Sequence record: MN445185.1
Origin: Escherichia phage vB_EcoM_EC001
DNA: 64,000 nt
Direction: 5' to 3' (one strand)
In this document: in pieces, positions 1 to 63,766 of the stretch
Numbering within the stretch: the stretch's first letter is position 1
Layout of the letters: each line of letters starts with the position of its first letter
Notes under the pieces: generated by a model
Told to the model about the DNA's origin: nothing
Seen by the model: the letters and a program-made list of their open reading frames with translations, nothing else
Database searches by the model: none
Program-made: the position numbers and the translations under genes

Positions 1-228
1 CTTCATCCATTTTGCAGTGATGGCATTACCTTGCTTTACAGTAAGGTTGTCAGCACCACTTAAACTGTTGTGTTGCTTCTCTACAGGTGTCTCTGTTGCA
101 TCGACAGCTGTAGGATTAATAAAGTTAACTTCGATAGGGATGACTTTAACTCGAGTGGCACCACGAGGTTTATCTTCCGCGACGATACCTATCGAGAAGA
201 TGTGCAACCCTGACTTAGATTTATTCAT
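1..228 (-). CDS. hypothetical protein, 5' part only (gene continues past window start)
   Basis: Minus-strand frame open from ATG at 226-228 to the window edge (76 codons, no stop); GAGGAGG 5 nt upstream. Absent from ORF track because truncated. Overlapping plus ORF 17..370 has no RBS. Confidence 0.45.
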   Translation of the reverse strand, partial: MNKSKSGLHIFSIGIVAEDKPRGATRVKVIPIEVNFINPTAVDATETPVEKQHNSLSGADNLTVKQGNAITAKWMK

Positions 229-408
229 ACCACCCTCCTCTCATACTACACTTTTTTACGTTTCGATCTCATCGTTTGACAATCGAGGAGTGTACGGGGG
301 TAAGGGGGTTTATGTATTGGATGCGAACATAAACGGAGGTATCCGTAGGATACCGACATCCTTTTTGTAGTTGACCTTGACTTTTAACCTAACGAGGAGT
401 GCAGTACC

Positions 409-726
409 ATGTCTTTATTTCAAACCATTAAAAGTGCATTAGAGCGTAATGATGCAGACAGTGCCTTTACTGCGTTACAGAAAGCCAGTAACGGGAAGCT
501 AGATAGCGTCTTTGCTAACAATCAAAGAATGCGCTTTTACAAAGTCGGGGAAGTAGACCAGTTCTACAACGAACTGTTTACAGGGGTAGTGCAAAGCGCG
601 GTATACGCCATGCCGACTGAACAACTAAGTCAGTTTGAAAAAGGGATGCGTTACCAGCGGTTAAGTAACGACTACTCATTACTGAATCTGGCTATCGATG
701 ACTGCGTCGTACTGGTTGTATACTAA
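409..726 (+). CDS. hypothetical protein (105 aa)
   Basis: ORF with GAGGAG 9 nt upstream of ATG; first gene after a divergent intergenic region. Confidence 0.6.
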   Translation: MSLFQTIKSALERNDADSAFTALQKASNGKLDSVFANNQRMRFYKVGEVDQFYNELFTGVVQSAVYAMPTEQLSQFEKGMRYQRLSNDYSLLNLAIDDCVVLVVY

Positions 727-846
727 GTTTTTACAGATAGATGTCATCTTAGTGAGCAATGTGTATAAACCCACAGTCGCTTAAACACCAACTGTTCTTT
801 AGTAACAGTTTTTGGTCACTTTAGTGTACTTTAAAGGAAATACCAA

Positions 847-2085
847 ATGTATAACGAATACGAATTAGTTTACCAGACACCGAAAGAAGCATTCTTTAAT
901 GCAGTAATTACTAACTCAATTGTACTGTTGGGAATGCAGTTCAATATTCGGAGTATGGCTTACAGCGACGTAACGTGGCAGGATTGTGCGTGCCTGCCAC
1001 AAAAGCTCTCAACCGTTGTCGAAAAGCGGCTGCTTGACAAAGGGGAAGTAAAGTGCCGTTTAGGCCACCACGTCTCTGACTTAGCGCCGTGGGTTGAATT
1101 AACCATGACATTCGAAGGGGATTCGCGGGTAGCTTACCTATCGGGTAATCAAAACATCGGACGCGCCATTGCTGAGGGTAACACAATGTGGGTGCACTAC
1201 ATTCTTACTCTGCTGATCGATAAACCGGTGTTCGAGTTAACACCAGACATGCCTACACTAAGCGATAGCAACTGGTGGATTGGCGGAGAGCTGAATACAG
1301 GGTTTAATGAGAAATTACAAAACTTTAATTCAGAGCGACTCGATGTTGATGCGGAAGTGTTGGTGCAGCAGTTCCCCGAATTCACTGCGTACCAAATTAC
1401 TACCGTATGGAATAGAGCGGTAAGCAAGCGCAGATTCTACACGAAAAACGCACCGCGTGAAGCAGCCAAACCTGTGGAAATTGACGAAGACACCAAGGAA
1501 GCACTGCGTGATCTAGTCACCATAGCCAATGATAGCAATATGATGTTCTGGACATCTGATGAAAACGCTAACCATTATTTCGGTGAGATGTTAGACGCCG
1601 ATGTTTGGTCAGTAATGCCGATAACAGAGCCAGGAAACCTTAAAGATTACTATAAGGTCGAAAAGGATGAGGTGGTTAATGAGAAAGTCCTCACTCTTCT
1701 TGCTGTTTTCCGCGAAGTTATCCAGTCAGAAATACTGTTAAGCATCTATAAACGTAAGACCCCGGCCAGTGAAAATGACACGGCGTGGGTATTTGACTGT
1801 CGACCGACAAATACAATATCGCCTGCGTTCTGGATACAGGTGACAGGAAAGCTGCAGCGTGTGAACAGTTATGTTGTTTCTCGCCTGCCAGATTCTGAAA
1901 TGCGCTCCGTTGCCGAACCTGCTTATTTGATGTCGGCGAAGGCGGTACAGGATGCGTGGCGTACCAACGAACTGAAACAATGGCATTACGACGCTATCAT
2001 CAAATGGGGTGTTAACAATGGCTGGAAAGAAGTGACTAAGTACGGCCGTCAACTGTTGTTTGTCGCTGATTTGCGTTTACTGTAA
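847..2085 (+). CDS. hypothetical protein (412 aa)
   Basis: Long ORF, AAAGGA upstream of ATG, followed by an intrinsic terminator; no motif recognised. Confidence 0.7.
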   Translation: MYNEYELVYQTPKEAFFNAVITNSIVLLGMQFNIRSMAYSDVTWQDCACLPQKLSTVVEKRLLDKGEVKCRLGHHVSDLAPWVELTMTFEGDSRVAYLSGNQNIGRAIAEGNTMWVHYILTLLIDKPVFELTPDMPTLSDSNWWIGGELNTGFNEKLQNFNSERLDVDAEVLVQQFPEFTAYQITTVWNRAVSKRRFYTKNAPREAAKPVEIDEDTKEALRDLVTIANDSNMMFWTSDENANHYFGEMLDADVWSVMPITEPGNLKDYYKVEKDEVVNEKVLTLLAVFREVIQSEILLSIYKRKTPASENDTAWVFDCRPTNTISPAFWIQVTGKLQRVNSYVVSRLPDSEMRSVAEPAYLMSAKAVQDAWRTNELKQWHYDAIIKWGVNNGWKEVTKYGRQLLFVADLRLL

Positions 2086-2094
2086 TCTCGTCAT

Positions 2095-2124
2095 CGGGGG
2101 TCTTGTACCCCCTTCTTATTTTTT
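2095..2124 (+). terminator. intrinsic terminator
   Basis: GGGGG-tcttgta-CCCCC then TTCTTATTTTTT, 10 nt after stop of 847..2085. Confidence 0.7.
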
Positions 2125-2145
2125 AACCGTAAAGAGTATTTAACC

Positions 2146-2727
2146 ATGCCACAACCAATTATTGAACAACATGAAATGAACTACGAAGAACTGACCCGCC
2201 GCTATCGCGTGAAAGCCCCACGGGTAGTAGAAGGTTGCGAGAAATACAAAGAAGCAGACTTCGTGGTATTCCAACGCGAAGGTGTTCCGATGATGGTGTT
2301 CGTAAAACACGTCAGCAGCGATAACGACGACCGCCTAGTGATGCTGTATAACTTGATGGCTACCGTACTAGATACCGATATTGGACTGTTACGTCGTTAT
2401 AAATCATCCTACGAACAGAAAGCGAAGGTGGTTGCTTTTGACTTACCACGCACGGTACTAGTAGATGGTTCCCGTCCGGCTATTCTTCGTTTTACGAAAA
2501 GCGAAAGCGACAGTAACCCAGCGCATATCGTTCAGCCACTAACGCTGTCGCAAGATACGTTACAGCAGAACGGCGGGATGGATTGGCTAAACGTCATGTT
2601 ACCGGGCCTAGCTGAAGGTCAGGAACTGCATCTGGTTTGCTACACCCCATCCGTTGAGCACACCTATGCGCGTTACCTTACCGAAGAACACGGTTTCCGT
2701 AACCACCGTGGTATTTACATTGCGTAA
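2146..2727 (+). CDS. hypothetical protein (193 aa)
   Basis: ORF starting 20 nt after a terminator; tightly packed with next gene. Confidence 0.65.
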   Translation: MPQPIIEQHEMNYEELTRRYRVKAPRVVEGCEKYKEADFVVFQREGVPMMVFVKHVSSDNDDRLVMLYNLMATVLDTDIGLLRRYKSSYEQKAKVVAFDLPRTVLVDGSRPAILRFTKSESDSNPAHIVQPLTLSQDTLQQNGGMDWLNVMLPGLAEGQELHLVCYTPSVEHTYARYLTEEHGFRNHRGIYIA

Positions 2728-2736
2728 GGTGAGTGT

Positions 2737-3300
2737 ATGTCCCGTTTACTAGAAATTCGAAACGATATCTGGCAAGAGCAGATCCACAACGATCCAGAGT
2801 GGGAAGGAGTTGAAAGTGATTTACCGGATAACCCCGACCAGCTGTTGGTGTTCCTTTATAGCGATAAAGCCAAACAGATCAAGGGGATATTTGAACGCAA
2901 AACGACAAGCTTGTCGACCTTACTGAGCTGCATTTGCTGTGGCATCAGTGAGCTTGATCCCAATCTATTCACCAACTATCTTGCGCGTAAAGTCCGTACA
3001 CCACTACTAGAAGTTACACTCCCGCCAGATATTCGTATCAGTAAAACTGTACCGACTGTTTTGCGTTTACAGGATGTGTCTGGTAGTAGCGACGATGGGG
3101 AAACAACGATTACTCTTTCCTCGTCAGAGAGTGAACTCGCAACCAAATCGTTTCTTAGCGAAGTCGAGGCCGGATTAAAGCAGGACGTAATCGTCTATAA
3201 TCTCGGCAGTGTGCCCATTGAGCCCATTTTACACTTCTTTGAAAGCCAAACCTGCCATCTTGTAGAAAGCTTAACATACCACTTTAAAGGAGCTTTATGA
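2737..3300 (+). CDS. hypothetical protein (187 aa)
   Basis: ORF with AAGGTGAG SD; 9-nt spacer from upstream gene. Confidence 0.65.
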   Translation: MSRLLEIRNDIWQEQIHNDPEWEGVESDLPDNPDQLLVFLYSDKAKQIKGIFERKTTSLSTLLSCICCGISELDPNLFTNYLARKVRTPLLEVTLPPDIRISKTVPTVLRLQDVSGSSDDGETTITLSSSESELATKSFLSEVEAGLKQDVIVYNLGSVPIEPILHFFESQTCHLVESLTYHFKGAL

Positions 3301-3584
3301 TGAAACTCGAAGGCTACGTTGTTACTGATAAACCTTTTGCTGAAGCCAACCTGTCGCGTTCACAGGTTGTTTATAAAGACATCGATGTGCCTGCCGAAAT
3401 CGTTAAAGCGAATCCCAGCTGGCTAATCAACCACGTTTCTTTGGAAATCACCAATCCGTTTATCAACGATCCAACCGACCCATTTGTCGACATGGGTAAT
3501 TTCCGCGATATTCTTTCCCCGCATCAATACCAGACAGTGGCACAGAAGAAAGGGAAGCTGCTCATCGAAACGTTGAGTGTGTAG
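3297..3584 (+). CDS. hypothetical protein (95 aa)
   Basis: ATGA start/stop overlap with upstream gene; AAAGGAG SD; followed by a strong terminator. Confidence 0.55.
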   Translation: MMKLEGYVVTDKPFAEANLSRSQVVYKDIDVPAEIVKANPSWLINHVSLEITNPFINDPTDPFVDMGNFRDILSPHQYQTVAQKKGKLLIETLSV

Positions 3585-3589
3585 TTTAT

Positions 3590-3630
3590 CTCCAGTAACC
3601 ACGAGGGTTACTGGAGTCCTCTTATTTTTT
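3590..3630 (+). terminator. intrinsic terminator
   Basis: 11-bp stem CTCCAGTAACC/GGTTACTGGAG, loop ACGAG, then TCCTCTTATTTTTT. Confidence 0.8.
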
Positions 3631-3663
3631 ACACTTAACTCAAATTAATTTGAGGTGTGGTAT

Positions 3664-4251
3664 ATGACAGAACGTATTTTACGACTGCAAGAGAACAGGT
3701 TAGAAGACCTGCACGTAATGCGTAGTCGCGGCTTGTTCCCAGTGGGGCTTGATGTAAGTGGGTTAATAACTTCTGCGCAGCACGGGGACAGGGTCATTAC
3801 AATGCATTCGCGTGGGAACGAAGTGGTCTCTGCGATTTTCATCGATAAGGTTATTCCGGACTCGGAAAGTGGTAAGGTAGCGGGACACATCATTTACGAA
3901 TACTTTCGCAGCATTCTATACGAGGAAAAGATAAACGTCAAAACTTTTATGGAGTACGCTAAGCGAAATAACTACATCGATGCGCGACTGATGGTCACGG
4001 AAGGCACCCCAACTATAAACGGTAAAGTCCACCATCGTTTACTTGGGGCGCAGTTGCCGAGACTGGGTGAGTTACCGACGACGATAGAGCTACACCAAAA
4101 AACAGATTGGCGACACAAAATCGAAGTGCTTCACAAGCTTTACGATTTATCGATCGTTCAAATCAAACTGGTGGACTTCACGCCTGCAAATATGCAAATC
4201 GCTAAGCGCGCATTGGGTTTTCGTATTCTTAACACAACGTTCACATTGTAA
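3664..4251 (+). CDS. hypothetical protein (195 aa)
   Basis: Track ORF 3655..4251 begins at GTG; start moved to ATG 3664 with GAGGTG SD. Confidence 0.65.
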   Translation: MTERILRLQENRLEDLHVMRSRGLFPVGLDVSGLITSAQHGDRVITMHSRGNEVVSAIFIDKVIPDSESGKVAGHIIYEYFRSILYEEKINVKTFMEYAKRNNYIDARLMVTEGTPTINGKVHHRLLGAQLPRLGELPTTIELHQKTDWRHKIEVLHKLYDLSIVQIKLVDFTPANMQIAKRALGFRILNTTFTL

Positions 4252-4282
4252 AATATCTCAGATATATATTACTTAGGTGAGA
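4252..4282 (+). promoter_or_regulatory. conserved promoter-like element, TATATTAC class
   Basis: …CTCAGATATATATTACTTAGGTGAG… right after stop of 3664..4251; near-identical copy at 62806; core matches phiKZ early-promoter element as I recall it. Confidence 0.45.
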
Positions 4283-4302
4283 GTTAAGAGATTAACTCAA
4301 CT

Positions 4303-4331
4303 GGCTACCCTCGGGTAGCCTATTCTTTTTT
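4303..4331 (+). terminator. hairpin + T-run between promoter-like motif and gene 4357 (terminator or attenuator)
   Basis: GGCTACC-ctcg-GGTAGCC then TATTCTTTTTT. Confidence 0.6.
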
Positions 4332-4356
4332 AAACCAATCGACTGTAGAGCAAAAC

Positions 4357-4758
4357 ATGACTATCAAGAAGTTCTTACAAACAGTAGTAGTTCTGGCCGC
4401 ATGTGGTATCGCAGCAACTTATGCTTTCGATAAGCCAGACGTGACTGAATACGTATCAGCGGATTCCGATTACGGTATTGCACCGAATGAAAAACCGGAA
4501 CTGATGCGTGAGGTCGAACAGTTACAAATCTACAAACTGACGGATGGTAAGAACTGCACAGGGCTGGTTATCGCTGATAAGAAACTGAAAATGTATCAGC
4601 GGTTAATCGACATATCGTGCGATCAACCAAAAGTCACCTCGGTCAGTGTATCGCCGTTGGAATTGCCAGATCTGGTTGCTGTGAGTTTTTATCACAACGA
4701 TGTGCTCGTTGGTCGCATCACCCTCAATCGTGGAGATATCAAAAATGAAATGCAATAA
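4357..4758 (+). CDS. putative lipoprotein (133 aa)
   Basis: N-terminal signal peptide with lipobox-like VLAAC-G. Confidence 0.6.
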   Translation: MTIKKFLQTVVVLAACGIAATYAFDKPDVTEYVSADSDYGIAPNEKPELMREVEQLQIYKLTDGKNCTGLVIADKKLKMYQRLIDISCDQPKVTSVSVSPLELPDLVAVSFYHNDVLVGRITLNRGDIKNEMQ

Positions 4759-5236
4759 CGTTAATCGCCACTTGGCCAAAGTGGTGCTTTTTACTGTGCT
4801 GTTGATGGCACTTGTTGTTGGGCTACGGATTTCTAAGGCACACGCTGACGAATTCAGCGGGTTCCAGGGCAGTATTAACGGCAGCATTCCAGCATATACC
4901 CGCACCATCAATCTTAATGATAAGCCGTTCTGGTGCAATGCGCGTAAGCTGCTTAAGAAACAGTGTCGTGTAGTTGACATATCCTTCAACGGTCGTGTCG
5001 CTATCGTACACCGTCCGGGCGATAAAGATTGCCCAGGTGGTTGGTGGGGTGCAGTCGACCGTCACAACGGTGACGCGTTATGGCTTATCCCTAATCGTGA
5101 TGAACTATCAGTGGAGAAAATTTGCAGCAAAGATTTCAGGGCCGGTTTTGTACAGCGACCGGATACCAAAACTCTGGCCTCCATCGCTATGTACTACGGT
5201 ATGGAAACCATCAAAACAATCGACTATTCAGAATAA
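4745..5236 (+). CDS. putative secreted protein (163 aa)
   Basis: Start moved from track ORF 4700 to ATG 4745 (GGAGA SD); predicted signal peptide ending ...SKAHA; several Cys; overlaps upstream gene by 14 nt. Confidence 0.6.
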   Translation: MKCNNVNRHLAKVVLFTVLLMALVVGLRISKAHADEFSGFQGSINGSIPAYTRTINLNDKPFWCNARKLLKKQCRVVDISFNGRVAIVHRPGDKDCPGGWWGAVDRHNGDALWLIPNRDELSVEKICSKDFRAGFVQRPDTKTLASIAMYYGMETIKTIDYSE

Positions 5237-5258
5237 CTCAAAAAATTGAGGTGCTATT

Positions 5259-5669
5259 ATGAAACATTTTTTATTACCAGTTTTACTTGCTACTCTGGCC
5301 ATTAGCTTCTTCGCTCGCGCTGGAAGTATCGAGTTACCAAAAGTTGTTAACGATCACGAATACGGCGGACAGTTCTGGTGCCAGAACTCTGACGTACAAG
5401 GCGGTAGCTGCCAGATCGTTGCGATGTCCGATAACAACCGTTACCTGTTAGTGAAAACGATGGGCGGTGTCGCATGTGGCGACCCTGAATACGGGGTTAT
5501 TAACATGGCAACCGGGCAAGCCGAATCCATGAACTACAATGATAACCAAGCCTGTAGCGGTGAAGCCGTTGCTGAGTTTACACGCGACCCAGGCGACAAT
5601 GCCCTGACGGTTATCATGTACGACCCTACGATTAAGAAAAACGTAGGCATCAATAAACTCGACTTTTAA
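5259..5669 (+). CDS. putative secreted protein (136 aa)
   Basis: GAGGTG SD; N-terminal signal peptide (MKHFLLPVLLATLAISFFARA); Cys-containing mature part. Confidence 0.65.
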   Translation: MKHFLLPVLLATLAISFFARAGSIELPKVVNDHEYGGQFWCQNSDVQGGSCQIVAMSDNNRYLLVKTMGGVACGDPEYGVINMATGQAESMNYNDNQACSGEAVAEFTRDPGDNALTVIMYDPTIKKNVGINKLDF

Positions 5670-5682
5670 GTAAGGAAACAAC

Positions 5683-6066
5683 ATGCGTGGATTTATGGGT
5701 ATTATCGCGGCGGTGTTCTTGACCGCTTCCGCTTCAGCTACAACCAGCGTAGAAGATTTACTGCCAGGCACACCGTATCAGTACAACCCGCCTTCATTCG
5801 AAGTCTGTACTGGCGACGATGGCAGATGTGAAGAAGTCAGCCGTCACGACGAGTATATCCTGGTCCACGCAAAGGGCGAAGAAACTTGTCCTGCAGGTTA
5901 CTACTTTCTGTTGAACTCAAAGGCACAAGAGATTGTGCCGGTAGAGACAATAACGTGCGACCCGACGCTTCGCGCGTCGCTCGCTTACAATACGAAAACC
6001 AAACAGCGCCTCCTGGTTATTGAACAACAAGGCGAAGTGCGTGGTTCAATAGCGCTCGACCAGTAA
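5683..6066 (+). CDS. putative secreted protein (127 aa)
   Basis: AAGGA SD; signal peptide (…AAVFLTASASA); Cys-rich mature part. Confidence 0.65.
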   Translation: MRGFMGIIAAVFLTASASATTSVEDLLPGTPYQYNPPSFEVCTGDDGRCEEVSRHDEYILVHAKGEETCPAGYYFLLNSKAQEIVPVETITCDPTLRASLAYNTKTKQRLLVIEQQGEVRGSIALDQ

Positions 6067-6095
6067 CCGAAAAGTTTTCAGACAGATGTTATAAC

Positions 6096-6168
6096 GTGAG
6101 ATGACGACCCATCTCACTTTGGCCCTGCGGTGATTTCCCCAACACTTAGCCGCAGGGTCCTTTTTAAT
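6096..6168 (+). terminator. tandem hairpins, second followed by T-run
   Basis: GTGAGAT…ATCTCAC, then CCCTGCGG-(19-nt loop)-CCGCAGGG followed by TCCTTTTT, which runs into the TTAATCGAC motif. Confidence 0.55.
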
Positions 6169-6181
6169 CGACTATTACTCG
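6164..6181 (+). promoter_or_regulatory. conserved 5'-leader motif TTAATCGAC(C/T)ATTA
   Basis: TTAATCGACTATTACTCG ending ~19 nt before ATG 6196. Confidence 0.35.
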
Positions 6182-6195
6182 TAAGGATTAAGCAA

Positions 6196-6696
6196 ATGAA
6201 CATGAACATTCTCGACGATACCCGTTCTTCTTTCTTTACTCAGATGAACGTTAACCCTGAACGTACCCGTGCTATTCTTTCTACTGGTTGGAAGTTGAAG
6301 TTGTTAGGCGAGTTAACCCTCAATCGCACCGACTGGCCAGCAGAAGCAACCGTACTGATTAACAGCATCCACAGCGAATGGTTAGATGCTGCGTTGAATG
6401 CCCCACAGCTACGTCCGTACTACCGGATGCTTCACGCGGGATATGAAGTATACCGCAAAGGTTGGTACGATGCAGCCACTTATTGCAAAACCCCTGAAGG
6501 TCGTGAAGACAACACTGTCGACCACGTATTAGTGAATAACTTCTGGGGAGACCAAATTGAGGTCTTACAACTCTCTACCGGTGACCGTATTCCGGCCTGT
6601 GAGTTATTCGAAACTAACGCACAAATGTACGAACCGTATGCAATGATTCGTGGCCATAAGGTCCCAATCATTTCCCTTATGCATATGGGGCTGTAA
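6196..6696 (+). CDS. hypothetical protein (166 aa)
   Basis: Track ORF 6130..6696 starts inside a terminator hairpin; start moved to ATG 6196 (AAGGA SD), preceded by the TTAATCGACTATTA motif. Confidence 0.65.
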   Translation: MNMNILDDTRSSFFTQMNVNPERTRAILSTGWKLKLLGELTLNRTDWPAEATVLINSIHSEWLDAALNAPQLRPYYRMLHAGYEVYRKGWYDAATYCKTPEGREDNTVDHVLVNNFWGDQIEVLQLSTGDRIPACELFETNAQMYEPYAMIRGHKVPIISLMHMGL

Positions 6697-6702
6697 ATAC
6701 GA

Positions 6703-6732
6703 GAGGTAGCCTACGGGCTACCTTCTTTTTTT
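6703..6732 (+). terminator. intrinsic terminator
   Basis: AGGTAGCC-tacg-GGCTACCT then TCTTTTTTT. Confidence 0.75.
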
Positions 6733-6750
6733 GTTGAAGAAGGATTAAAC

Positions 6751-7377
6751 ATGAACGAGATTACCCTGATTCGTTTCATCGACGATATGGTGACGTGTCA
6801 GAAAGCGAATCGTCAGGATACCAAACTGCGTATCAATCTGATGGAAGAAGAGGTAGAAGGGTTTCTGGAATACCCGCGATTGGTGAAGTGGTTTAAAGAA
6901 GCACTGCCGCGTAGCTGGGAACAGCTAGAAGCGTGGTTTGCTCTACCTATTGCAGAACGTAATCCCAATAATACGATCTTCACCGGAACTACTGCATTAG
7001 ATTTGGCTGGTTCGGTGGAGCAACCTAAACGTTTAGTTTTCTTCTACGTCAATGGCGATTCAATAATGGCTGATACAGTTAACTGGATTTCTGATGAGTT
7101 AACTGTAAACACCACATTGGTCGGTAGCGCTGCTGATGCCTGGGTTGTTGGTCAGCACCAATCGCAGCCGTACGAAGAAATCAAAACCGGTTATTTAATC
7201 CCGATATATCTCGACGGCGTGGCACCGGGTCGTAGTGCCGAACTGTTCAAATTCCTGCTTACTGAAACGTTAAAGGTTGTCGATTCTGATGCTGGTCGGG
7301 CGTGGTATGAATTAACCAAAGAGCGCACCGACAGTTTCTGGGAATCACTCGGCCACCGTAAGTTTACTCCGCAATAA
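6751..7377 (+). CDS. hypothetical protein (208 aa)
   Basis: ORF between two intrinsic terminators; GAAGGA SD. Confidence 0.65.
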   Translation: MNEITLIRFIDDMVTCQKANRQDTKLRINLMEEEVEGFLEYPRLVKWFKEALPRSWEQLEAWFALPIAERNPNNTIFTGTTALDLAGSVEQPKRLVFFYVNGDSIMADTVNWISDELTVNTTLVGSAADAWVVGQHQSQPYEEIKTGYLIPIYLDGVAPGRSAELFKFLLTETLKVVDSDAGRAWYELTKERTDSFWESLGHRKFTPQ

Positions 7378-7388
7378 CTCTCCTCTCT

Positions 7389-7420
7389 GGAACCCTTCGG
7401 GGTTCCATTTCTTCTTTTTT
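7389..7420 (+). terminator. intrinsic terminator
   Basis: GGAACCC-ttcg-GGGTTCC then ATTTCTTCTTTTTT. Confidence 0.75.
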
Positions 7421-7440
7421 ACGCATGACCTTTTGGATAT

Positions 7441-7454
7441 GAACGACTAATACT
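7441..7454 (+). promoter_or_regulatory. conserved 5'-leader motif (variant GAACGACTAATACT)
   Basis: Same spacing (~19 nt) to ATG 7474 as other copies. Confidence 0.3.
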
Positions 7455-7473
7455 TTCTCATTAGAAGGCAAAC

Positions 7474-9984
7474 ATGCTCAAGGTCGAACGTATCATTTTG
7501 AAAGGATTTACCGGCATGGGGTTACATGAAATCGAAACGTTTGATTTCACCCTCAAGTCCACCGTTACCATCATCCTCGGCGGTAACGGCTGCGGTAAAA
7601 CAAGCCTCCTATCTGTTTTTCTCCCCATAGCTCCAGCAAAATCTGAATTCCGTGAAGGTGGTTCTTACACTAACTACGCGTTAGTCGGGGACGACCGTCT
7701 TAAGTTTGAAGTCCTGCGTCGTGGGTCTTCTCTGTCTTGTAGTATCTTCAACATCACTAAAGGTGTTTCCGTCGTAGACTCGGTAAACGCCAAAGTTTAC
7801 AACTCCATGGTGGAGCAATTAACCGGAATCACCAAAGAAATCAAAGAGTTAATTAATGGTGAGACCTTATTAACTGACGCCACTACCGAAGTTCGTCGTA
7901 AATGGTTTACGTTAATGTCAGAATCTGATCTGACGTACGTTGTTGGTTGTTATCGTCGTCTGCGTAAACTCGCTTCCAGTTTAAGTGGGGCCATTGAGCA
8001 CACCGGCCGTAAAATCGGTGAGGCAAAAATGCGCGTGGTGGACGATGAAGAAGATCGTGCACGTTTGGAAGTTCGTTTGAAAGAACTGGACGTTGAGCTT
8101 CAGGAACTAAACCGCACCATTGAAGCGAGACCCGGTTTAGATAACGCCGTTTCGGTTGATAGTATCCGGAAACGCATTGCTTCGTTGCAACCGGCTGTAA
8201 AACTCATTATGGAGCGTTATGGTGTTCTGCCTTCTGACGAACTGATTAACGAGTTTCAAAGTCGTGTAGTTGCCTGGCGTGAGCAAGCTGCCTCTGCTGA
8301 AACTGAATGCAACATGTACAATAAAGAGTTGTCACAGCTACTGGATGAGGAGTCGCGTCAAGCGTATCTGATGCGCAACCATACCGGTCTAAAACAAACA
8401 ATCGACAGCTTAAAACAGGAACTGGCAACGTTCCAACAGAACTGGATGTTCCCGGCTCTGTTTGAAGGTACCCGCATCGATGTGGATAGCATTCAGAACG
8501 CGTTAAACGATGCCTGTAACTGGAATTTACCGTTGTCCATGCATCTGGACCAGTTAAAGACAACAGAGCGCCTGGGAGCGTTAGAGAAGCGTTTACAGGG
8601 TATGGATTTAACCTCTGCGGGTCTATCTGAAAAGCTGCAACGTTGTGAGAATGTGCTACACGGTTTATACCACGACCGTCAACACTTCTTAGAAACTGCA
8701 GAAGTTGATTGTCCACAGTGTAACCACCGTTTCCGTCCTGGGATTCGTAAGTCGTTACCTGAAATTGAAAAGGCCATCAACGATAATGAAGGTTGGAAGA
8801 AGCAGCTGAAAGACGAAATGGATAGTCTTTTGCGTGACCGCAAAGAGATTGAAGAGGACGTCCGTAGCTTACGTACGATTCGCGAAATCGTCATGTCGTA
8901 TTCCAATCATCCCGTTGTCGGTTTGTTTTTCCGTAAACTGCAGGAGCTGGATATCTTCACCACGGCGCGGGATCGTTACGGTGCCATTGCACGTGCCTTT
9001 ACTGAAGAGTTAGATTCGGCCATGATGTATCTGCGTCAATCGGCGAAGCTTGCAACAGCGGAACGGGAATGGCAAGAGGCTGTTGCCGCAGTAGGTAACG
9101 TTGATGGTGCGCTGAGCCAGAAAATTGAACATATCCGTTCACAACTGGATGGGGCTAACCGTCGACTGATAGAATACCGCAGACAAGCCAATGAGCTGGA
9201 ACGCGAAACCACCCAACTGCAACAAACCAAAGAAGCAATCGAACGTTTCCAAAAGGGCTACGAACATCTGGTATCGGAAATGAACATCTCCGTTAACAAC
9301 GTCGTGGTTCGCGAGTTGTTAAACCGACGCGAAGCGAAGCTCGATGCGTATACTTCCGCTCGTGAACGGTTTCGTCAAATGGAAGGGGCTATTGCACGTT
9401 TAGCGGAACTGGAAAAAGAGCAAGCTGAATTGCTTAAAGAGCATCACCATGCCAGATTGATTATCAATGCCGTCTCACCCGAAAAAGGATTATTGCGTCG
9501 TTACTTTTATGCTGCGATTACCCGCATCATGGATTTAATGAATCGGTATATCGAAATGGTGTGGGCATATCCGATGCAGGTTATTCCATGCGATCTAACC
9601 GACGGGGATTTGGATTATACTTTCCCGGTACGATTAAAAGACCATGAAGAACTGGTGCCGGATGTGAAGAAAGGTTCGAAGGCACAGCGTATTATCTTTA
9701 ACATGATGTTTCGTTTAACGGCGTATAAAGCGCTTGGTTTACAAAACTATCCTTTGTTATTGGATGAACCCTCTGAAGGCATGGATGAGGAACACAAAAA
9801 TCGACTGGTCAACTTCATTAAATCGTTGGCGTTGTCGGGAGAGTTTTCTCAATTGCTGGTCGTTTCGCATGAAGCGGAAGTTCATTCTAAACTTAACGAA
9901 GCCACCTACTGTGTCGTGGAGCCAGAAGGTGTAACGCTTCCACCGGTTTATAACGAAGGGGTAATAATCAAATATGCATCATAA
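7474..9984 (+). CDS. Rad50/SbcC-like SMC-family ATPase (836 aa)
   Basis: N-terminal Walker A GGNGCGKTS; long predicted coiled-coil; central CPQC (zinc-hook-like); C-terminal Walker B/D-loop LLLDEPSEGMD and VVSHE. Assigned by motif architecture only. Confidence 0.75.
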   Translation: MLKVERIILKGFTGMGLHEIETFDFTLKSTVTIILGGNGCGKTSLLSVFLPIAPAKSEFREGGSYTNYALVGDDRLKFEVLRRGSSLSCSIFNITKGVSVVDSVNAKVYNSMVEQLTGITKEIKELINGETLLTDATTEVRRKWFTLMSESDLTYVVGCYRRLRKLASSLSGAIEHTGRKIGEAKMRVVDDEEDRARLEVRLKELDVELQELNRTIEARPGLDNAVSVDSIRKRIASLQPAVKLIMERYGVLPSDELINEFQSRVVAWREQAASAETECNMYNKELSQLLDEESRQAYLMRNHTGLKQTIDSLKQELATFQQNWMFPALFEGTRIDVDSIQNALNDACNWNLPLSMHLDQLKTTERLGALEKRLQGMDLTSAGLSEKLQRCENVLHGLYHDRQHFLETAEVDCPQCNHRFRPGIRKSLPEIEKAINDNEGWKKQLKDEMDSLLRDRKEIEEDVRSLRTIREIVMSYSNHPVVGLFFRKLQELDIFTTARDRYGAIARAFTEELDSAMMYLRQSAKLATAEREWQEAVAAVGNVDGALSQKIEHIRSQLDGANRRLIEYRRQANELERETTQLQQTKEAIERFQKGYEHLVSEMNISVNNVVVRELLNRREAKLDAYTSARERFRQMEGAIARLAELEKEQAELLKEHHHARLIINAVSPEKGLLRRYFYAAITRIMDLMNRYIEMVWAYPMQVIPCDLTDGDLDYTFPVRLKDHEELVPDVKKGSKAQRIIFNMMFRLTAYKALGLQNYPLLLDEPSEGMDEEHKNRLVNFIKSLALSGEFSQLLVVSHEAEVHSKLNEATYCVVEPEGVTLPPVYNEGVIIKYAS

Positions 9985-13085: not shown

Positions 13086-13536
13086 CGCGCCTGAGCGCTT
13101 CAAGGTCGTTACAGTTAACTGTGTTGGTGCAATGGGAAGGGGCATTGCTTTGGCGTGCCGAGAACGCTTCCCATCGCTTTATAATGACTATCGCCAGAAA
13201 TGTCGTAAAGAGCAAATCGTTATCGGTGAGGTCTATTGTTATCCTGAGGAAGGGGTAATACTCCTTCCTACTAAAACCCATTTTCGCTATAAATCGCAGA
13301 TTTACTATGTCACGTCCGGCATTGATGCGCTGGCGCGACTAGGGGAAGACTTAGAAGGAGGGATTGCGATACCGCCCCTAGGGATGGCTAACGGTTGGTT
13401 ACGTTACCATGAGCGATTGGAAATCTTTATACACTTACAGAAACGACTACAGCACACGGAGCAGACTTATCGATTCTATTTACCGGACACATTGCTAAGG
13501 GAAGCAGAGAAAATCATCCCAAAAAGTTTCAAATAG
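13036..13536 (+). CDS. macro-domain protein, TARG1/DarG-like (166 aa)
   Basis: Motifs in order: HDLF…VNCVGAMGRGIALACRERFP, QIYYVTSG, GIAIPPLGMANGW, resembling the TARG1/OARD1/DarG macro subfamily as I recall it. Confidence 0.6.
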   Translation: MSLELIDEAVISHDLFNAPERFKVVTVNCVGAMGRGIALACRERFPSLYNDYRQKCRKEQIVIGEVYCYPEEGVILLPTKTHFRYKSQIYYVTSGIDALARLGEDLEGGIAIPPLGMANGWLRYHERLEIFIHLQKRLQHTEQTYRFYLPDTLLREAEKIIPKSFK

Positions 13537-23801: not shown

Positions 23802-24209
23802 ATGTTAAAGGTGTATAGCGAGTCATTGATGGACTTGCAAGAGTATCTAAAGCATGTGGAAATTAACGGCAACCGAGGAATGATATACTCCATGGTTGTC
23901 GAGATTTTAATTAAAATCGTGCTTGTTTCATTCCACGTGGCAGAAAATGGCACTGCTGTACCAGGCGATGTTTATAAAGGTGTTATTAAACATCTTAGCG
24001 ACCGCTACAGTTGTTTACGTGAACCGGATATCTTTAATGAGGTGCAACGTGTTGTGTTGCTTATCCTCGACAACCGTGGAGACTTGGCGTTCAAGCTTGC
24101 GCGTGAATTGGCAGACACGTCACAGCACGGTGGACAACTGAAATATAACGTTGTGGATCTCGTAGCGTGCAGATACTGGTATACGCAGCCCGAGTTAAGT
24201 AACTTTTAA
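23802..24209 (+). CDS. hypothetical protein (135 aa)
   Basis: Start moved from track ORF 23721 to ATG 23802, just after upstream stop, G-rich SD. Confidence 0.55.
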   Translation: MLKVYSESLMDLQEYLKHVEINGNRGMIYSMVVEILIKIVLVSFHVAENGTAVPGDVYKGVIKHLSDRYSCLREPDIFNEVQRVVLLILDNRGDLAFKLARELADTSQHGGQLKYNVVDLVACRYWYTQPELSNF

Positions 24210-24219
24210 GGAGCATTAG

Positions 24220-24759
24220 ATGCAAATCGTAATTGACTTCGCTCTGTCGGAGTCGAGACGTCAGCTAGATGAAATTCTGTTAGGATTAAAACGTGACGTG
24301 GAATTTGAACTTCACGATGCGTTGGCCGTCCACGAAAATCGTTTGTCTGACGAAATAGGTTCGGGTGTAGATGTGACTATCTGTGACACTGGGGATATGG
24401 TAAATCAGCTTATTGAACGTATGTTCACGCGGCTGCGTAACATTCTGAACTATCCCCATCGTTTTGAACTGGTAGAAGGGACGGACCAAATCACCGACTT
24501 ATTGAGTGAAGCCTTTGATAAGGTCGGTGAGTCTCTGGCGGGGTTACATCAAGAGAACCTGGGCGAGACATACGTTGCTGTGGTCATTAACGGGCAATCA
24601 TCGAACGTCACGGACACGGTAACATGGTCTGATATCGTTGACCAGCCAATCATTGACAAAATCACCAAGTTGTATCGTGATGCGGAAATGAAGGTGCTGG
24701 CTATCTGTCGTCGTGAACTACTGTATCTCGGCGAGAAATATGGGAAACCTGCTGAATGA
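24220..24759 (+). CDS. hypothetical protein (179 aa)
   Basis: TTAAGGAGCA SD. Confidence 0.6.
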   Translation: MQIVIDFALSESRRQLDEILLGLKRDVEFELHDALAVHENRLSDEIGSGVDVTICDTGDMVNQLIERMFTRLRNILNYPHRFELVEGTDQITDLLSEAFDKVGESLAGLHQENLGETYVAVVINGQSSNVTDTVTWSDIVDQPIIDKITKLYRDAEMKVLAICRRELLYLGEKYGKPAE

Positions 24760-25298
24760 AAATATTCATTGATTTACTCGATGACGAATTTCGCGAAATA
24801 TTTCCAGCGGCGTTGTTCGAGTTTAAACGCAAGTGTGAAGACTATCTAATACCGAAGAATATCGATCGTCAGCACCTCGCCGGGCTTATCTCTGCGGCGT
24901 ACGTCAACATCGCGGTAAATGAAGTTCATCAACTCGCCCAGCGTATTGCGTGTTTCGAATACAACGACGAAGACATTGAAGACGGCTTCCTGCAGTCTAA
25001 GATGGGTCGCTTCTCACTCGAACTCAAGACCGATGAAGTTATTGATAAGGTCGGTAAAGCGTTTGATGAAATGAAAGACATCGAAATGATGATTAAAATG
25101 TCTGGACCGGAAGCTGGGCCGTTGAAAGAAGCGTGGGAAAATCTCAACCGCGAAGGGTATAAAAAGATGTATATGGAGGAGTTCACCACTATGCTACGTC
25201 ATCTCGAAGCGCAGATCTGGGAGCATATCGTTTCACGTCTGAAAGAAATACTGATTGTGGTCGAACCAATGCAGCCCATCACTATTGGCAATTTCTAG
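24756..25298 (+). CDS. hypothetical protein (180 aa)
   Basis: ATGA overlap with upstream gene; terminator follows. Confidence 0.6.
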   Translation: MKIFIDLLDDEFREIFPAALFEFKRKCEDYLIPKNIDRQHLAGLISAAYVNIAVNEVHQLAQRIACFEYNDEDIEDGFLQSKMGRFSLELKTDEVIDKVGKAFDEMKDIEMMIKMSGPEAGPLKEAWENLNREGYKKMYMEEFTTMLRHLEAQIWEHIVSRLKEILIVVEPMQPITIGNF

Positions 25299-25302
25299 TT
25301 AA

Positions 25303-25337
25303 ACGGACACTCTTCGGGGTGTCCGTAGTTTTATTTT
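25303..25337 (+). terminator. intrinsic terminator
   Basis: ACGGACAC-(tcttcggg)-GTGTCCGT then AGTTTTATTTT, running into the TTAATCGACCATTA motif. Confidence 0.7.
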
Positions 25338-25349
25338 AATCGACCATTA
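25336..25349 (+). promoter_or_regulatory. conserved 5'-leader motif TTAATCGACCATTA
   Basis: Directly after terminator T-run; ends 18 nt before ATG 25367. Confidence 0.35.
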
Positions 25350-25366
25350 ATCTAAAGGAGTATTAA

Positions 25367-26290
25367 ATGGACAGCTTTCTTTTTGATTTGGCAGAATCGG
25401 TAAATGTAGATGTAATCGGTATGCGCGAATCCCCGAGTAATTTCTTAAACGGTCTTACTAAAATCGACGAACGTGTGAAATCCAGAAGTGGAGATCCCGC
25501 CATCATCGAGCAATACGCAATAGCCCATTGTGGCGAGATAGGCCAGCACTTTATACCGATTGAGGCGTTCCTAAAGAACTGCTTCGCCGAAGAATGCACC
25601 GCAGACTTCCTGTCTCTTGCCTACGGCTGGCGATACGGGGGTATCCAAATGGAATTTGATCTTAATATTTTTGAACAAGTTCTACTTGGCGACGTTCTCA
25701 CTGAGATACCACGCAGCTGGATAGACAAGATTCCCGGTTGGGCCGTCTCCTTTTCAGTGTGCTATCGCGCTAAAGATATCGGTATCCAAGAAAAGACTTA
25801 CGTTTTCGGTCGGCGAATGTTTAAAGGGAAAGATTGTTTAACAATGATGATTTTTGGAAAACGTATCGAGGGGGAAACCTTTGAAATCGTGGACGTGGGT
25901 GACGGCTTTGTATCCTTGCGTGTGGCGGAAACTGGTACGCCGGCCAATGAGAAAACGTTACGCATTGTCGGCGCTACCATGTTTACATTCTCACTGATCC
26001 CGCACAACCCTACACCCGTCAAACTGAGACAATTAACTGGAAAGAAACGTATCGCCAATTACCACATTGAACCAAAATCTAAACCGACTGTCCTCTCCAC
26101 CGTAAAAGCACAAAGCGAGTATCTTGAAGAATTTGATACTGATACGGAGAAAAGAACACAAGGTAGCAGATGTGCGCATATGCGTCGTGCACACTGGTGT
26201 ACTTACTGGCTCGGTCCACGTGACGGGAATCGGACAAAGATTTTGAAATGGATACCGCCGACATTTGTCAACGGTTCTAAATGCAAATAA
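25367..26290 (+). CDS. hypothetical protein (307 aa), Cys/His-rich C-terminus
   Basis: AAAGGAG SD preceded by TTAATCGACCATTA motif; C-terminal RCAHMRRAHWC…SKCK could bind metal (speculative). Confidence 0.65.
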   Translation: MDSFLFDLAESVNVDVIGMRESPSNFLNGLTKIDERVKSRSGDPAIIEQYAIAHCGEIGQHFIPIEAFLKNCFAEECTADFLSLAYGWRYGGIQMEFDLNIFEQVLLGDVLTEIPRSWIDKIPGWAVSFSVCYRAKDIGIQEKTYVFGRRMFKGKDCLTMMIFGKRIEGETFEIVDVGDGFVSLRVAETGTPANEKTLRIVGATMFTFSLIPHNPTPVKLRQLTGKKRIANYHIEPKSKPTVLSTVKAQSEYLEEFDTDTEKRTQGSRCAHMRRAHWCTYWLGPRDGNRTKILKWIPPTFVNGSKCK

Positions 26291-51898: not shown

Positions 51899-53512
51899 GT
51901 GAGAAAGCTAAACTGGGTTGACTTTTACTTGTTAAACGTCAACAAGTCCCTGGTGTCGCATTTAAAACCAGTTACAACAACAGACACCTTTCAGGGACTG
52001 ACGAAAAACTTTCACCCTGAAGGACTGTATTCAACCGAAATTTTTGGCCTCACAGGGAGCGAAGCACGAGACTCAACGTTCTCGTACATTGATATCAAAC
52101 TGGATATCATTTCGCCGACCGTTTGTTTGGCATTGTTCCAGCTGAAACAGCTGTACGAAGAAATCTGTTCCGGGAAGCGATTCGCTATCTGGAATGAGAA
52201 AGAAAAAGATTTCGAGCCGGCTCTGCCCAGTGATAAAGGTGCAGACACCGGCTTCAACTTCTTCCTACGCTACTACGAACAACTGACGCCAGGACGCAAC
52301 GAATCAATGCGTCGCGACGAGACAGTCGATTTCTTCAATAAGTTCCGTCCGGTCAGTCTCAGCCGCTATGTGCTGGTTCTACCTGCGGGATTACGTGATT
52401 TGGTCATTCGTCAGGATGGCCGCGACCAAGAAGAAGAGATTGGCGGACTCTACCGCCGTCTGATTTCTCTGGCACGTGCAGTCCCCGACCGCAGTACGCG
52501 AACGGAACTGACTGACCCGGTTCGCTGGAAGCTCCAACAAACCTTTAATGACATCTGGATGTACTTCTTCAACATCCAAGACGGTAAAGGTGGTTTTGCG
52601 CGTCGTAAAGTGACGTCACGTAAGTTAATGAACGGTACGCGTAACGTACTGTCTTCATTCTCAACCGGTTCCAAGGTCATGGGTCGCGAAGATGCGATTC
52701 GTCCAACGGATACCCGTATCGGTTTGTACCAAACCCTGAAGGCGTTACTGCCTGTGGCTCAATACCACATCCGTGAACGTTACCTCAGTAACATCCGGGC
52801 AGGGGATGGCAACTTATACGGCGTTAACACCAAAACACTCAAGCGTGAGTTCCTGGAAGTCTCCGGGCGGGTGTATGACCTTTTCACTACCGACGATGGC
52901 ATCGAAACACTCATCAACAGAATGGAAGCGCGCGAGCTTCGACATAAACCGCTGATGATTGATCCGGACCATTACGTGGCATTAATCTACCAAGACAAAC
53001 GCAGCTTCAAAATCTTTTACGATATTGAAGACCTGCCGGAAGGACGTGACCGTAAGCTTGTCCGCGGACTGAGCTTAGCGGAACTCCTCTATTTGTCAGG
53101 TTACGATATTTGGAATGACTACTTCTCGTTCATCACGCGTTATCCGGTTACGGGACGCGGTTCGACTTACTCCTCGACCATAAGATTGGAGACCACCACT
53201 TCTTCCCTCTATTTGCATGAACTGGAAGACGATTGGGTCACGTTAAAAGAGAAGGGTGCAATTAGCTTCCCTGATCGTACCGTGAAAACCTTTGTGGAAT
53301 CCATGGCACCACATCCATCCCGATTAGGTGGATTGGGTGGTGACTACGATGGTGACACCGGCTCAGCAAACTGCCCGATGTCAACCGAAGCGCTCGAGGA
53401 AAATCGGAAGTGGGTCAGTTCGAAAAACTACTGGTTTGCAACAGACGGCAGTTTCAAAATCAATCCGGTTAACAACGTGATTAAAAGAACGACTGCTGCG
53501 CTGTTGAAATGA
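51899..53512 (+). CDS. RNA polymerase beta-prime-like subunit, N-terminal-half type (537 aa, GTG start)
   Basis: AGGAG SD 7-8 nt before GTG. In canonical order: SYIDIKLDIISP (~GHIELAAPVAH), RRKVTSRKLMNGTRNVL (~LLGKRVDYSGRSVI), TRYPVTGRGS (~NRAPTLHRLG), GDYDGDTGSANCPMSTEAL (~NADFDGDQMAVHVPLSLEA) ~50 aa before the stop. Confidence 0.65.
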   Translation: MRKLNWVDFYLLNVNKSLVSHLKPVTTTDTFQGLTKNFHPEGLYSTEIFGLTGSEARDSTFSYIDIKLDIISPTVCLALFQLKQLYEEICSGKRFAIWNEKEKDFEPALPSDKGADTGFNFFLRYYEQLTPGRNESMRRDETVDFFNKFRPVSLSRYVLVLPAGLRDLVIRQDGRDQEEEIGGLYRRLISLARAVPDRSTRTELTDPVRWKLQQTFNDIWMYFFNIQDGKGGFARRKVTSRKLMNGTRNVLSSFSTGSKVMGREDAIRPTDTRIGLYQTLKALLPVAQYHIRERYLSNIRAGDGNLYGVNTKTLKREFLEVSGRVYDLFTTDDGIETLINRMEARELRHKPLMIDPDHYVALIYQDKRSFKIFYDIEDLPEGRDRKLVRGLSLAELLYLSGYDIWNDYFSFITRYPVTGRGSTYSSTIRLETTTSSLYLHELEDDWVTLKEKGAISFPDRTVKTFVESMAPHPSRLGGLGGDYDGDTGSANCPMSTEALEENRKWVSSKNYWFATDGSFKINPVNNVIKRTTAALLK

Positions 53513-62754: not shown

Positions 62755-62796
62755 CTCATCCTATCTTCGGATACGGGTGAGTCTTTTTATTTTATT
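62755..62796 (+). terminator. probable intrinsic terminator
   Basis: Imperfect hairpin CTCATCCTATC-ttcg-GATACGGGTGAG then TCTTTTTATTTTATT. Confidence 0.55.
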
Positions 62797-62805
62797 AATT
62801 GCATT

Positions 62806-62839
62806 CAAAAAGAACTGAGATATATATTACTTAGGTGAG
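62806..62839 (+). promoter_or_regulatory. conserved promoter-like element, TATATTAC class
   Basis: CAAAAAGAACTGAGATATATATTACTTAGGTGAG, downstream of a terminator and ~50 nt upstream of gene 62890. Confidence 0.45.
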
Positions 62840-62856
62840 CGTTACACGTTAACGCT

Positions 62857-62870
62857 TTAATCGACCATTA
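62857..62870 (+). promoter_or_regulatory. conserved 5'-leader motif TTAATCGACCATTA
   Basis: Ends 19-20 nt before ATG 62890; ~18 nt downstream of TATATTAC element. Confidence 0.35.
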
Positions 62871-62889
62871 CCCAGAAGGAGTATTTACA

Positions 62890-63732: not shown

Positions 63733-63735
63733 TAG

Positions 63736-63749
63736 TTAATCGACCATTA
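63736..63749 (+). promoter_or_regulatory. conserved 5'-leader motif TTAATCGACCATTA
   Basis: Starts 4 nt after upstream stop; ends 18 nt before ATG 63767. Confidence 0.35.
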
Positions 63750-63766
63750 TCGTAAGGAATATTTAC

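Follow-up and report, generated by a model that had tools for sequence, protein, structure and literature searches.

A predicted early promoter, a 5'-terminal hairpin and a terminator-like stem-loop share one leader in a Seoulvirus-like jumbo phage

The intergenic region around positions 4252-4331 of a 64,000-nucleotide (nt) stretch of Escherichia phage vB_EcoM_EC001 DNA (record MN445185.1; the whole stretch is called the window hereafter) combines, on the + strand, a predicted early promoter, two hairpins and a T-run. The window belongs to an SPN3US-like Seoulvirus, a phiKZ-related jumbo phage; the region shares 95-98% DNA identity with Salmonella phage SPN3US and some thirty relatives of ~240 kb, and Erwinia jumbo phages give weaker matches. 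Upstream lies a gene at 3655-4251 (+ strand, from the list of open reading frames (ORFs)), the homolog of SPN3US gp179 (SPN3US_0179; PHROG 31892, function unknown), whose TAA stop codon at 4249-4251 falls within the A/T-rich 5' part of the promoter. The downstream gene at 4357-4758 (+ strand) is the homolog of SPN3US gp180 (SPN3US_0180; PHROG 9424, function unknown) and encodes a 133-residue protein with a signal-like N-terminus, the lipobox-like LAAC at residues 13-16 being the sole basis for calling it a candidate lipoprotein. Its ATG at 4357 is preceded by a weak Shine-Dalgarno (SD) sequence (GAG, 4348-4350) and, 20 nt from the ATG, by a degenerate copy of an AATCGAC(YATTA) leader box at 4337-4343 (+ strand; repeat family D1, also present in the SPN3US listing). 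A Pfam search gave no match for either flanking gene. The order given in the preliminary description, with the element followed by a GC hairpin and T-run (4303-4331) and then by ATG 4357, holds on the sequence at every coordinate; a further hairpin between the element and the GC hairpin had been overlooked.

The phage encodes the kind of transcription machinery that such an element would serve. RNA polymerase (RNAP) beta-like proteins are encoded at 51899-53509 and 53531-57733 of the window (PHROG 2986 and 3148) and correspond to SPN3US gp240/241, and the SPN3US annotation lists five beta/beta' RNAP pieces; from the PHROGs matches and this annotation, both multisubunit virion and non-virion RNAPs are encoded in the genome. 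A Pfam search gave no match for the window RNAP subunits, though PHROGs detects them. The literature likewise classes SPN3US as a phiKZ-family phage with a virion (vRNAP) and a non-virion RNA polymerase (nvRNAP). The element at 4244-4280 (+ strand; AAAATATCTCAGATATATATTACTTAGGTG), with its core TATATTAC at 4265-4272, is placed by sequence comparison as a predicted class-A early promoter of the vRNAP type found in phiKZ-like phages. Early promoters predicted in a published comparison read TATATTAC for phiKZ, TTAWTAVAA_HYWTTTRARR_BTATATTACDWHDGTG for 201phi2-1 and TTTYARRYAKATATTATYWWADTG for OBP and N1M2 (PMC7058600 Table 2). The window stretch CTCAGATATATATTACTTAGGTG agrees with these consensus sequences position by position: the AT-rich motif of ~10 nt contains the exact core, and the flanks, including the upstream T/A-rich elements, fit the pattern TTTYARR...TATATTAC...GTG of 201phi2-1 and OBP. 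According to a review, all RNAP-encoding jumbo phages carry an AT-rich motif of this kind, with its centre near position -10 relative to early start sites; it constitutes the early promoter consensus wherever transcripts have been profiled and is presumably read by the virion RNAP. Differential RNA sequencing (dRNA-seq) and ONT-cappable-seq in phiKZ and 201phi2-1 are consistent with this role. As in the phiKZ group, the enterobacterial sites are numerous, intergenic and located ahead of small genes of unknown function, but the invariant version in the enterobacterial clade, AGATATATATTACYTAGGTGA, is longer, and the start sites of Seoulvirus are predicted ones.

The number and placement of the copies fit a promoter as well. 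The window holds exactly two copies of the 21-mer GATATATATTACTTAGGTGAG, at 4261 and 62819, each in + orientation (chance expectation 0.00 in 100 shuffles), and the similarity of the two copies spans 43 nt at 86% identity (repeat family D9). We assembled the SPN3US genome from five annotated chunks and scanned it for the motif. A core search returned about 20 + strand sites, and when 17 of the core-search sites were turned into a position weight matrix (PWM), it returned 23 sites on the + strand versus 2 on the - strand, both of the latter being palindromic mirrors of + strand sites. All but one of the PWM sites are intergenic and oriented toward the downstream gene. The window holds five to seven sites, all on the + strand: the copies at 4260 and 62818 belong to the class-A subtype (TTTCAGATATATATTACYTAGGTGA; 7 copies in SPN3US), the sites at 13531, 22623 and 31161 to the class-B subtype (AGATAGATATTATCT), and two weaker sites lie at 725 and 6070. 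In IMG/VR, exact class-A matches number 41 in about 13 contigs, with up to six per contig and most contigs measuring 220-246 kb. By BLAST, the genomes of Salmonella and Erwinia jumbo phages each carry 5-7 copies of a 51-nt module, and jumbo phages of Cronobacter, Serratia and, in some cases, Pseudomonas match it in part. A relaxed IMG/VR scan with ATATATATTACNNNNGTGA yielded only two new genuine sites (contigs L050 and L086) and consisted mostly of an unrelated conserved coding stretch (...TTTGAAGATATATATTACGTAGGTGAAGTTAAA...), which is shared by ~100 unrelated small viral contigs (L051-L159), matches the relaxed pattern by chance and is a trap for motif searches. A scan for host sigma-70 promoters made no + strand call at 4240-4290, where no -35/-10 pair with 16-18 nt spacing was found, and sigma-70 sites in the region are rarer than chance (9 vs 15.5 +/- 4.4). 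Literature searches for the motif, an SPN3US transcriptome or gp180 returned nothing relevant, and the EPI-vesicle preprint is silent on promoters.

Because phiKZ early promoters (first 50 kb of the phiKZ genome) have a conserved TG 6-7 nt past TATATTAC, and the 201phi2-1 paper locates the AT-rich motif ~10 bp upstream of the transcription start site with an uncertainty of +/-2 nt, transcription most likely starts at G4279 (+/-2 nt; 4279-4281, + strand), as judged from the motif position in relatives. Immediately at this predicted start lies the AT-rich stem-loop H1, GAGTTAA-GAGA-TTAACTC (4281-4298, + strand; stems 4281-4287/4292-4298, loop 4288-4291), which appears in both the minimum free energy (MFE) and the centroid structure. 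The second class-A promoter of the window (62802-62856 with its hairpin, + strand; TATATTAC at 62823-62830) is followed by a hairpin H1', AGCGTTA-CACGT-TAACGCT (62838-62856), whose stem differs in sequence from H1 while pairing is retained at the same register. In SPN3US, a hairpin in this register follows all seven class-A sites (mean z -3.35), compared with about 5/17 of the non-class-A sites (mean z -0.77). Across IMG/VR, a hairpin with z < -1.5 is present at 30 of the 38 unique class-A sites, nearly always starting at base 1-3 after GGT. The stems vary in sequence (GAGAGTTA, GAGATTGC, GAGCATTG, GATAGA and others), and the loops measure 3-11 nt. When the 5' part of one class-A site was joined to the 3' part of another in a swap-partner permutation, the swapped hairpins reached -3.49 +/- 0.31 kcal/mol versus -5.66 kcal/mol for the native ones, and 0/500 permutations attained the native value; the sites are partly orthologous, so their independence is not clean. 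As swapped partners fold worse than native ones, the two arms of H1 appear to co-vary. G.U pairs are present in several class-A hairpins, including the H1 wobble variants of the relatives SPAsTU and pEa_SNUABM_29. Variable stems and loop lengths together with G.U pairs favour a structure on the transcribed (sense) strand, not a symmetric DNA site, and for the same reasons we rejected a protein operator in the form of a DNA palindrome. As a separate observation on the two subtypes, class A (TATATATTACYTAGGTGAG) always comes with the +1 hairpin and often with an AATCGAC box, and class B mostly has short unstructured leaders; the two may act at different times or with different strength.

Decay that depends on the 5' end is classically slowed in E. 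coli by a hairpin placed right at that end, and Emory, Bouvet and Belasco reportedly described in 1992 such stabilising 5'-terminal stem-loops of E. coli mRNAs, of the ompA type. H1 resembles the ompA type in beginning 0-2 nt from the predicted 5' end; it differs in being AT-rich and moderately stable (about -7 kcal/mol) and in that its 5' end is a predicted one. By this analogy, H1 most likely acts as a 5'-terminal stem-loop guarding early RNA against 5'-end-dependent decay. The preliminary description had offered the GC hairpin as a possible 5' stability element, a role that H1 at 4281-4298 fits better.

The GC hairpin itself, H2 (GGCTACC-CTCG-GGTAGCC, 4303-4320, + strand), was found by both the terminator scan and folding. 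Its stem of 7 pairs, 5 of them GC, closes a 4-nt loop and runs directly into a U-tract (TATTCTTTTTT, 4321-4331, + strand), the expected 3' end of upstream transcripts and of a ~50-nt leader RNA. The scan made 21 terminator-like calls in the first 10 kb, 4303-4320 among them, versus 9.9 +/- 2.8 in shuffles. In its GC-rich 7-bp stem, tetraloop and U-tract, H2 resembles the intrinsic terminators of bacteria and of phiKZ-type phages; in phiKZ, the terminator motif consists of a GC hairpin followed by TTAT. Compared with other terminators of the same genome, the stem of H2 is shorter than most and sits within a leader. The SPN3US version, GGCTACC-TTCG-GGTAGCC (7 bp, -11.9 kcal/mol), ranks 53/78 by stem energy among the terminator-like hairpins of SPN3US, in which stems of 10-12 bp are usual and many clear terminators consist of a GC stem, a UUCG loop and a T-rich tract. 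From these features, H2 is predicted to be an ordinary intrinsic terminator of this phage, on the weak side. It is the sole terminator after the stop codon of the upstream gene and at the same time lies inside the leader of gene 4357. Among the other SPN3US terminators, many have UUCG loops on 9-12-bp GC stems, for example at 72436-72461, 113924-113947 and 94154-94177, and the stem CCCTCTTACC-TTCG-GGTAAGAGGG recurs almost verbatim at 67345 and 94154.

Taken as one RNA, the predicted leader 4279-4331 folds into the two hairpins H1 and H2 (-21.2 kcal/mol, z -4.56, equalled by 0/200 shuffles); MFE and centroid structures coincide, and the MFE structure makes up 0.69 of the ensemble. Like a classical attenuator or riboswitch, it has a terminator located in the 5' leader. 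The leader contains no antiterminator, and any regulation would have to come from a trans-acting factor or from polymerases that differ. An Rfam search of window 1-8000 at E<=1 gave no family at the leader and one chance snoRNA match elsewhere. With one dominant fold and no competing one, no antiterminator, no SD-bearing leader ORF and no Rfam match, we rejected a classical attenuator or riboswitch. The earlier suggestion of a promoter with a possibly attenuating hairpin in its leader thus divides: consensus, copy number, placement and the precedents from phiKZ and 201phi2-1 described below speak for a promoter with a leader hairpin, and the missing alternative fold, leader peptide and Rfam family speak against attenuation in the classical sense.

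We next consider the neighbouring leaders, two of which combine the same elements within 4 kb. The second promoter-hairpin-terminator leader (6070-6165, + strand) starts with a weaker promoter variant, TTTCAGACAGATGTTAT, followed by an H1-type hairpin at 6096-6117 (GTGAGATG-ACGACC-CATCTCAC) and, at 6121-6160, by an 11-bp GC stem with a 17-nt loop and TTTTT; an AATCGAC box, an SD sequence and ATG 6196 come next. For the 69-nt RNA predicted from this leader, the fold energy is -28.9 kcal/mol (z -5.77). The ORF list starts the gene at 6130-6696 with GTG 6130, within the leader terminator; the SPN3US annotation, the SD sequence and the box favour ATG 6196. A third, weaker leader (725-815, + strand), ahead of gene 847, has the promoter variant ACAGATAGATGTCAT, an imperfect 5' hairpin and, at 790-810, an AT-rich stem AACTGTT/AACAGTT followed by TTTTT, and its fold barely beats shuffles (z -1.72). 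In each of the three leaders, the promoter lies right against the upstream stop codon, the gap contains no terminator besides the one in the leader and an H1-type hairpin is present, so that the predicted products are two-hairpin RNAs of about 50-70 nt, with z-scores of -4.56, -5.77 and a weak -1.72. Terminator-like hairpins with T-runs also lie at 2096-2112, 3590-3616, 6703-6724 and 7388-7407, directly 5' of genes 2146, 3655, 6751 and 7474, and no recognisable promoter was found between these terminators and the genes, which suggests either routine terminator read-through in this region or a promoter class that was not recognised. A further feature of the leaders is the conserved box (T)TAATCGACYATTA, present at window 6163-6192, 25335-25364, 62856-62885 and 63735-63764, about 29-31 nt 5' of start codons and just before the SD sequence. 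The AATCGAC box is found behind early promoters as well as in promoter-less gaps (for example SPN3US 224197, 57146 and 166644) and could be an nvRNAP promoter or a translation or processing signal.

Six orthologous regions were compared, from the window, SPN3US, SPAsTU and pEa_SNUABM_29 (Seoulvirus) and from Huxley and pSal-SNUABM-04 (Machinavirus). Promoter and H1 hardly vary among the six, although the flanking genes of the two Machinavirus phages can no longer be aligned as DNA. All four Seoulviruses retain H2 and the T-run, at flank identities as low as ~73%, and the one A-to-G change leaves a G.U pair in place. SPAsTU and pEa_SNUABM_29 lack the AATCGAC box and have a different gene, of 80 codons, downstream. 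As H2 is kept where the downstream gene differs, it travels with the end of the gp179 homolog, not with the downstream gene.

The following sequence of events would account for these features. The virion-carried multisubunit RNAP would transcribe early genes from the promoter at 4244-4280, starting at G4279, and the first ~20 nt of the RNA would fold as H1 and shield the 5' end from decay. After 24 nt of transcript, the RNA would meet H2 and its U-tract (4303-4331), a short-stemmed intrinsic terminator. H2 would end transcripts arriving from gene 3655-4251 and, prematurely, stop a fraction of the promoter transcripts, releasing a ~50-nt two-hairpin RNA; only the read-through fraction would express gene 4357, so H2 would dose that gene. 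With the promoter lying directly against the preceding gene's stop codon, one terminator would serve two units. The geometry of a terminator between start site and start codon fits if the predicted start at 4279 +/- 2 is correct. Leakiness of H2 is plausible, given its rank of 53/78, the terminators that precede genes 2146, 3655, 6751 and 7474 without a promoter, and the two further leaders of this type within 4 kb. On balance, we consider it fairly probable that the locus comprises an early promoter, H1 and a leaky leader terminator H2 that serves both units, where we infer termination by the phage RNAP and read-through.

Precedents for this arrangement exist in related phages. In phiKZ, the terminator T102 just 3' of promoter P112 aborts >90% of transcripts and gives a ~71-nt RNA confirmed by northern blot. 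In 201phi2-1, terminators directly follow promoters, including two capsid-gene promoters, and 8/11 small RNAs (sRNAs) arise by termination within 5' untranslated regions (5'-UTRs); the authors suspect antitermination. Candidate non-coding RNAs (ncRNAs), 5'-UTR-derived ones included, number 17 in phiKZ and 11 in 201phi2-1. P112/T102 and the 5'-UTR termination events of 201phi2-1 share with our locus an intrinsic-type terminator between a phage promoter and a start codon, and the short RNAs of both phages resemble the predicted structured RNA in sharing the mRNA 5' end. The window RNA differs from them in being a prediction of ~50 nt, below the ~80-nt mapping limit of those studies, and in that it would come from an early promoter, a class to which the documented examples may or may not belong. 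For the promoter class, terminator type and promoter-then-terminator layout alike, descriptions from related phages already exist.

Several observations weigh against an early promoter with a leaky, dosing terminator. A literature search found no transcript data for Seoulvirus or SPN3US, and we infer start, stop and read-through. The virion RNAP may not obey intrinsic terminators, phiKZ P112 may not belong to the early class, and dRNA-seq of the early phase of phiKZ gave no confirmed early sRNA. In a fold-based scan around 24 SPN3US promoter sites, a terminator lies 20-70 nt upstream of the promoter at 8 sites versus within the leader at 3; a finder restricted to perfect stems overlooks imperfect ones, among them the terminator that precedes the second copy. 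There, the reversed order that the preliminary description had pointed out is real, with a hairpin and T-run around 62761-62795 preceding the element at 62802-62837. Among the 38 unique class-A sites, only the one at 4244-4280 has a GC terminator in the leader. As the promoter-then-terminator order is in the minority, it could be a tolerated accident of tight packing. H2 is conserved but without double compensatory changes in the six-region comparison, and in the two Machinavirus regions it is absent and H1 leads straight into a T-rich tract, so that H2 is not essential to the promoter module; the T-rich tract is conserved in 6/6 regions, the H2-less ones included. Finally, no H1-like hairpin was seen at the phiKZ early promoters of the first 50 kb. 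H1 is therefore not a general requirement of the polymerase family, and we rejected it as a universal feature; by comparison of the genomes, an obligatory hairpin at the transcript start sets the promoters of the enterobacterial clade apart from those of phiKZ, and H1 is predicted to be a feature of the enterobacterial branch.

The same observations bear on a simpler explanation, that H2 is merely the terminator of gene 3655-4251 and is read through unhindered by polymerases from the promoter, with neither attenuation nor a short RNA; the virion RNAP or the just-initiated complex, for example, would then be insensitive to H2. The promoter abuts the upstream stop in 3/3 cases, with no alternative terminator; in SPAsTU and pEa_SNUABM_29, H2 still follows the gp179 homolog at its 3' end despite the different downstream gene; terminator-then-promoter is the commoner order (8 vs 3); and Machinavirus manages without H2. 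All this speaks for a plain terminator. However, a terminator that acts on upstream transcripts should act on promoter-proximal ones too, unless the two polymerases differ, and in phiKZ and 201phi2-1, which also depend on phage RNAPs, terminators near start sites abort most transcripts. We regard unhindered read-through as unlikely, albeit as the main competing explanation.

Alternatively, promoter, H1, H2 and T-run could form a stand-alone gene for a ~50-nt early sRNA protected by hairpins at both ends, with gene 4357 transcribed mainly from elsewhere, either from a distant upstream start by read-through or from a promoter, so far not recognised, over the T-run and AATCGAC box. The very stable fold (-21.2 kcal/mol, z -4.56, MFE frequency 0.69) would suit such a gene, as would the conservation of the entire unit in divergent Seoulviruses with a replaced downstream leader and gene, the two-hairpin design shared by two neighbouring units and the 5'-UTR-derived candidate ncRNAs of phiKZ (17) and 201phi2-1 (11); the AATCGAC box, moreover, also precedes genes without an early promoter. 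Yet the T-run is just 25 nt from the ATG, the box at 4337-4343 is degenerate and SPAsTU and pEa_SNUABM_29 have no box at all, which would leave their downstream gene promoterless without read-through. Furthermore, no target or function can be proposed, no Rfam family matches, and the early-phase study of phiKZ confirmed no early sRNA. A dedicated sRNA gene thus seems improbable. The preliminary description had also raised the alternative, an unlikely one, that the element is not a promoter; that it is a host sigma-70 promoter or another binding site or repeat in place of a phage-polymerase promoter is very improbable: TATATT does resemble a -10 hexamer, and the promoter role of the motif in Seoulvirus is itself deduced, but the sigma-70 scan made no + strand call and found sites below chance, the conserved stretch is ~35 nt long, far more than a -10 hexamer, and agrees with the early consensus of relatives with mapped starts, the multiple copies with their strand bias and intergenic, gene-oriented placement suit a promoter, and the literature describes transcription in phiKZ as not depending on host RNAP.

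Besides the early promoter with its leaky leader terminator, we considered a broader proposal concerning the early promoters of enterobacterial phiKZ-like phages (Seoulvirus, Machinavirus and other Erwinia jumbo phages). It is possible, and we put it forward tentatively, that in their strongest class the promoter and an obligatory +1 stem-loop together mark virion-polymerase transcripts, and that the leaders 4244-4331, 725-815 and 6070-6165 make functional two-hairpin early RNAs of ~50-70 nt. If so, the +1 stem-loop might serve 5' protection, promoter escape or the handling of RNA in the early infection vesicle. The transcriptome papers on phiKZ, 201phi2-1 and AR9 mention hairpins for terminators only, or nowhere, and we could not find an earlier description of a co-varying +1 hairpin tied to the class-A subtype. 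Two sites encountered in the promoter scans stand apart from these leaders. SPN3US 25230 is a good class-B match inside the gp30 coding region (23886-25493) and may be an internal promoter for gp31. At phiKZ 31194, TATATTAT is directly followed by a strong hairpin (GGGGGGGACCC-TTT-GGGGGGGTCCC) and its AT-rich flanks are mutually complementary; judged by its sequence, this site is less like a promoter than like a palindromic terminator, which may be bidirectional.

Should the co-varying +1 hairpin prove functional, it would make a useful component in the engineering of phages; otherwise, the locus would amount to an ordinary promoter/terminator pair. The analysis provides a sequence-level map of early transcription signals for Seoulvirus, whose members are genetic models and candidates for Salmonella biocontrol. 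Within 6 kb, it defines three compact test cases for whether virion and non-virion RNAPs respond differently to intrinsic terminators, and the same three leaders bear on whether promoter-proximal termination doses early genes or makes small RNAs.

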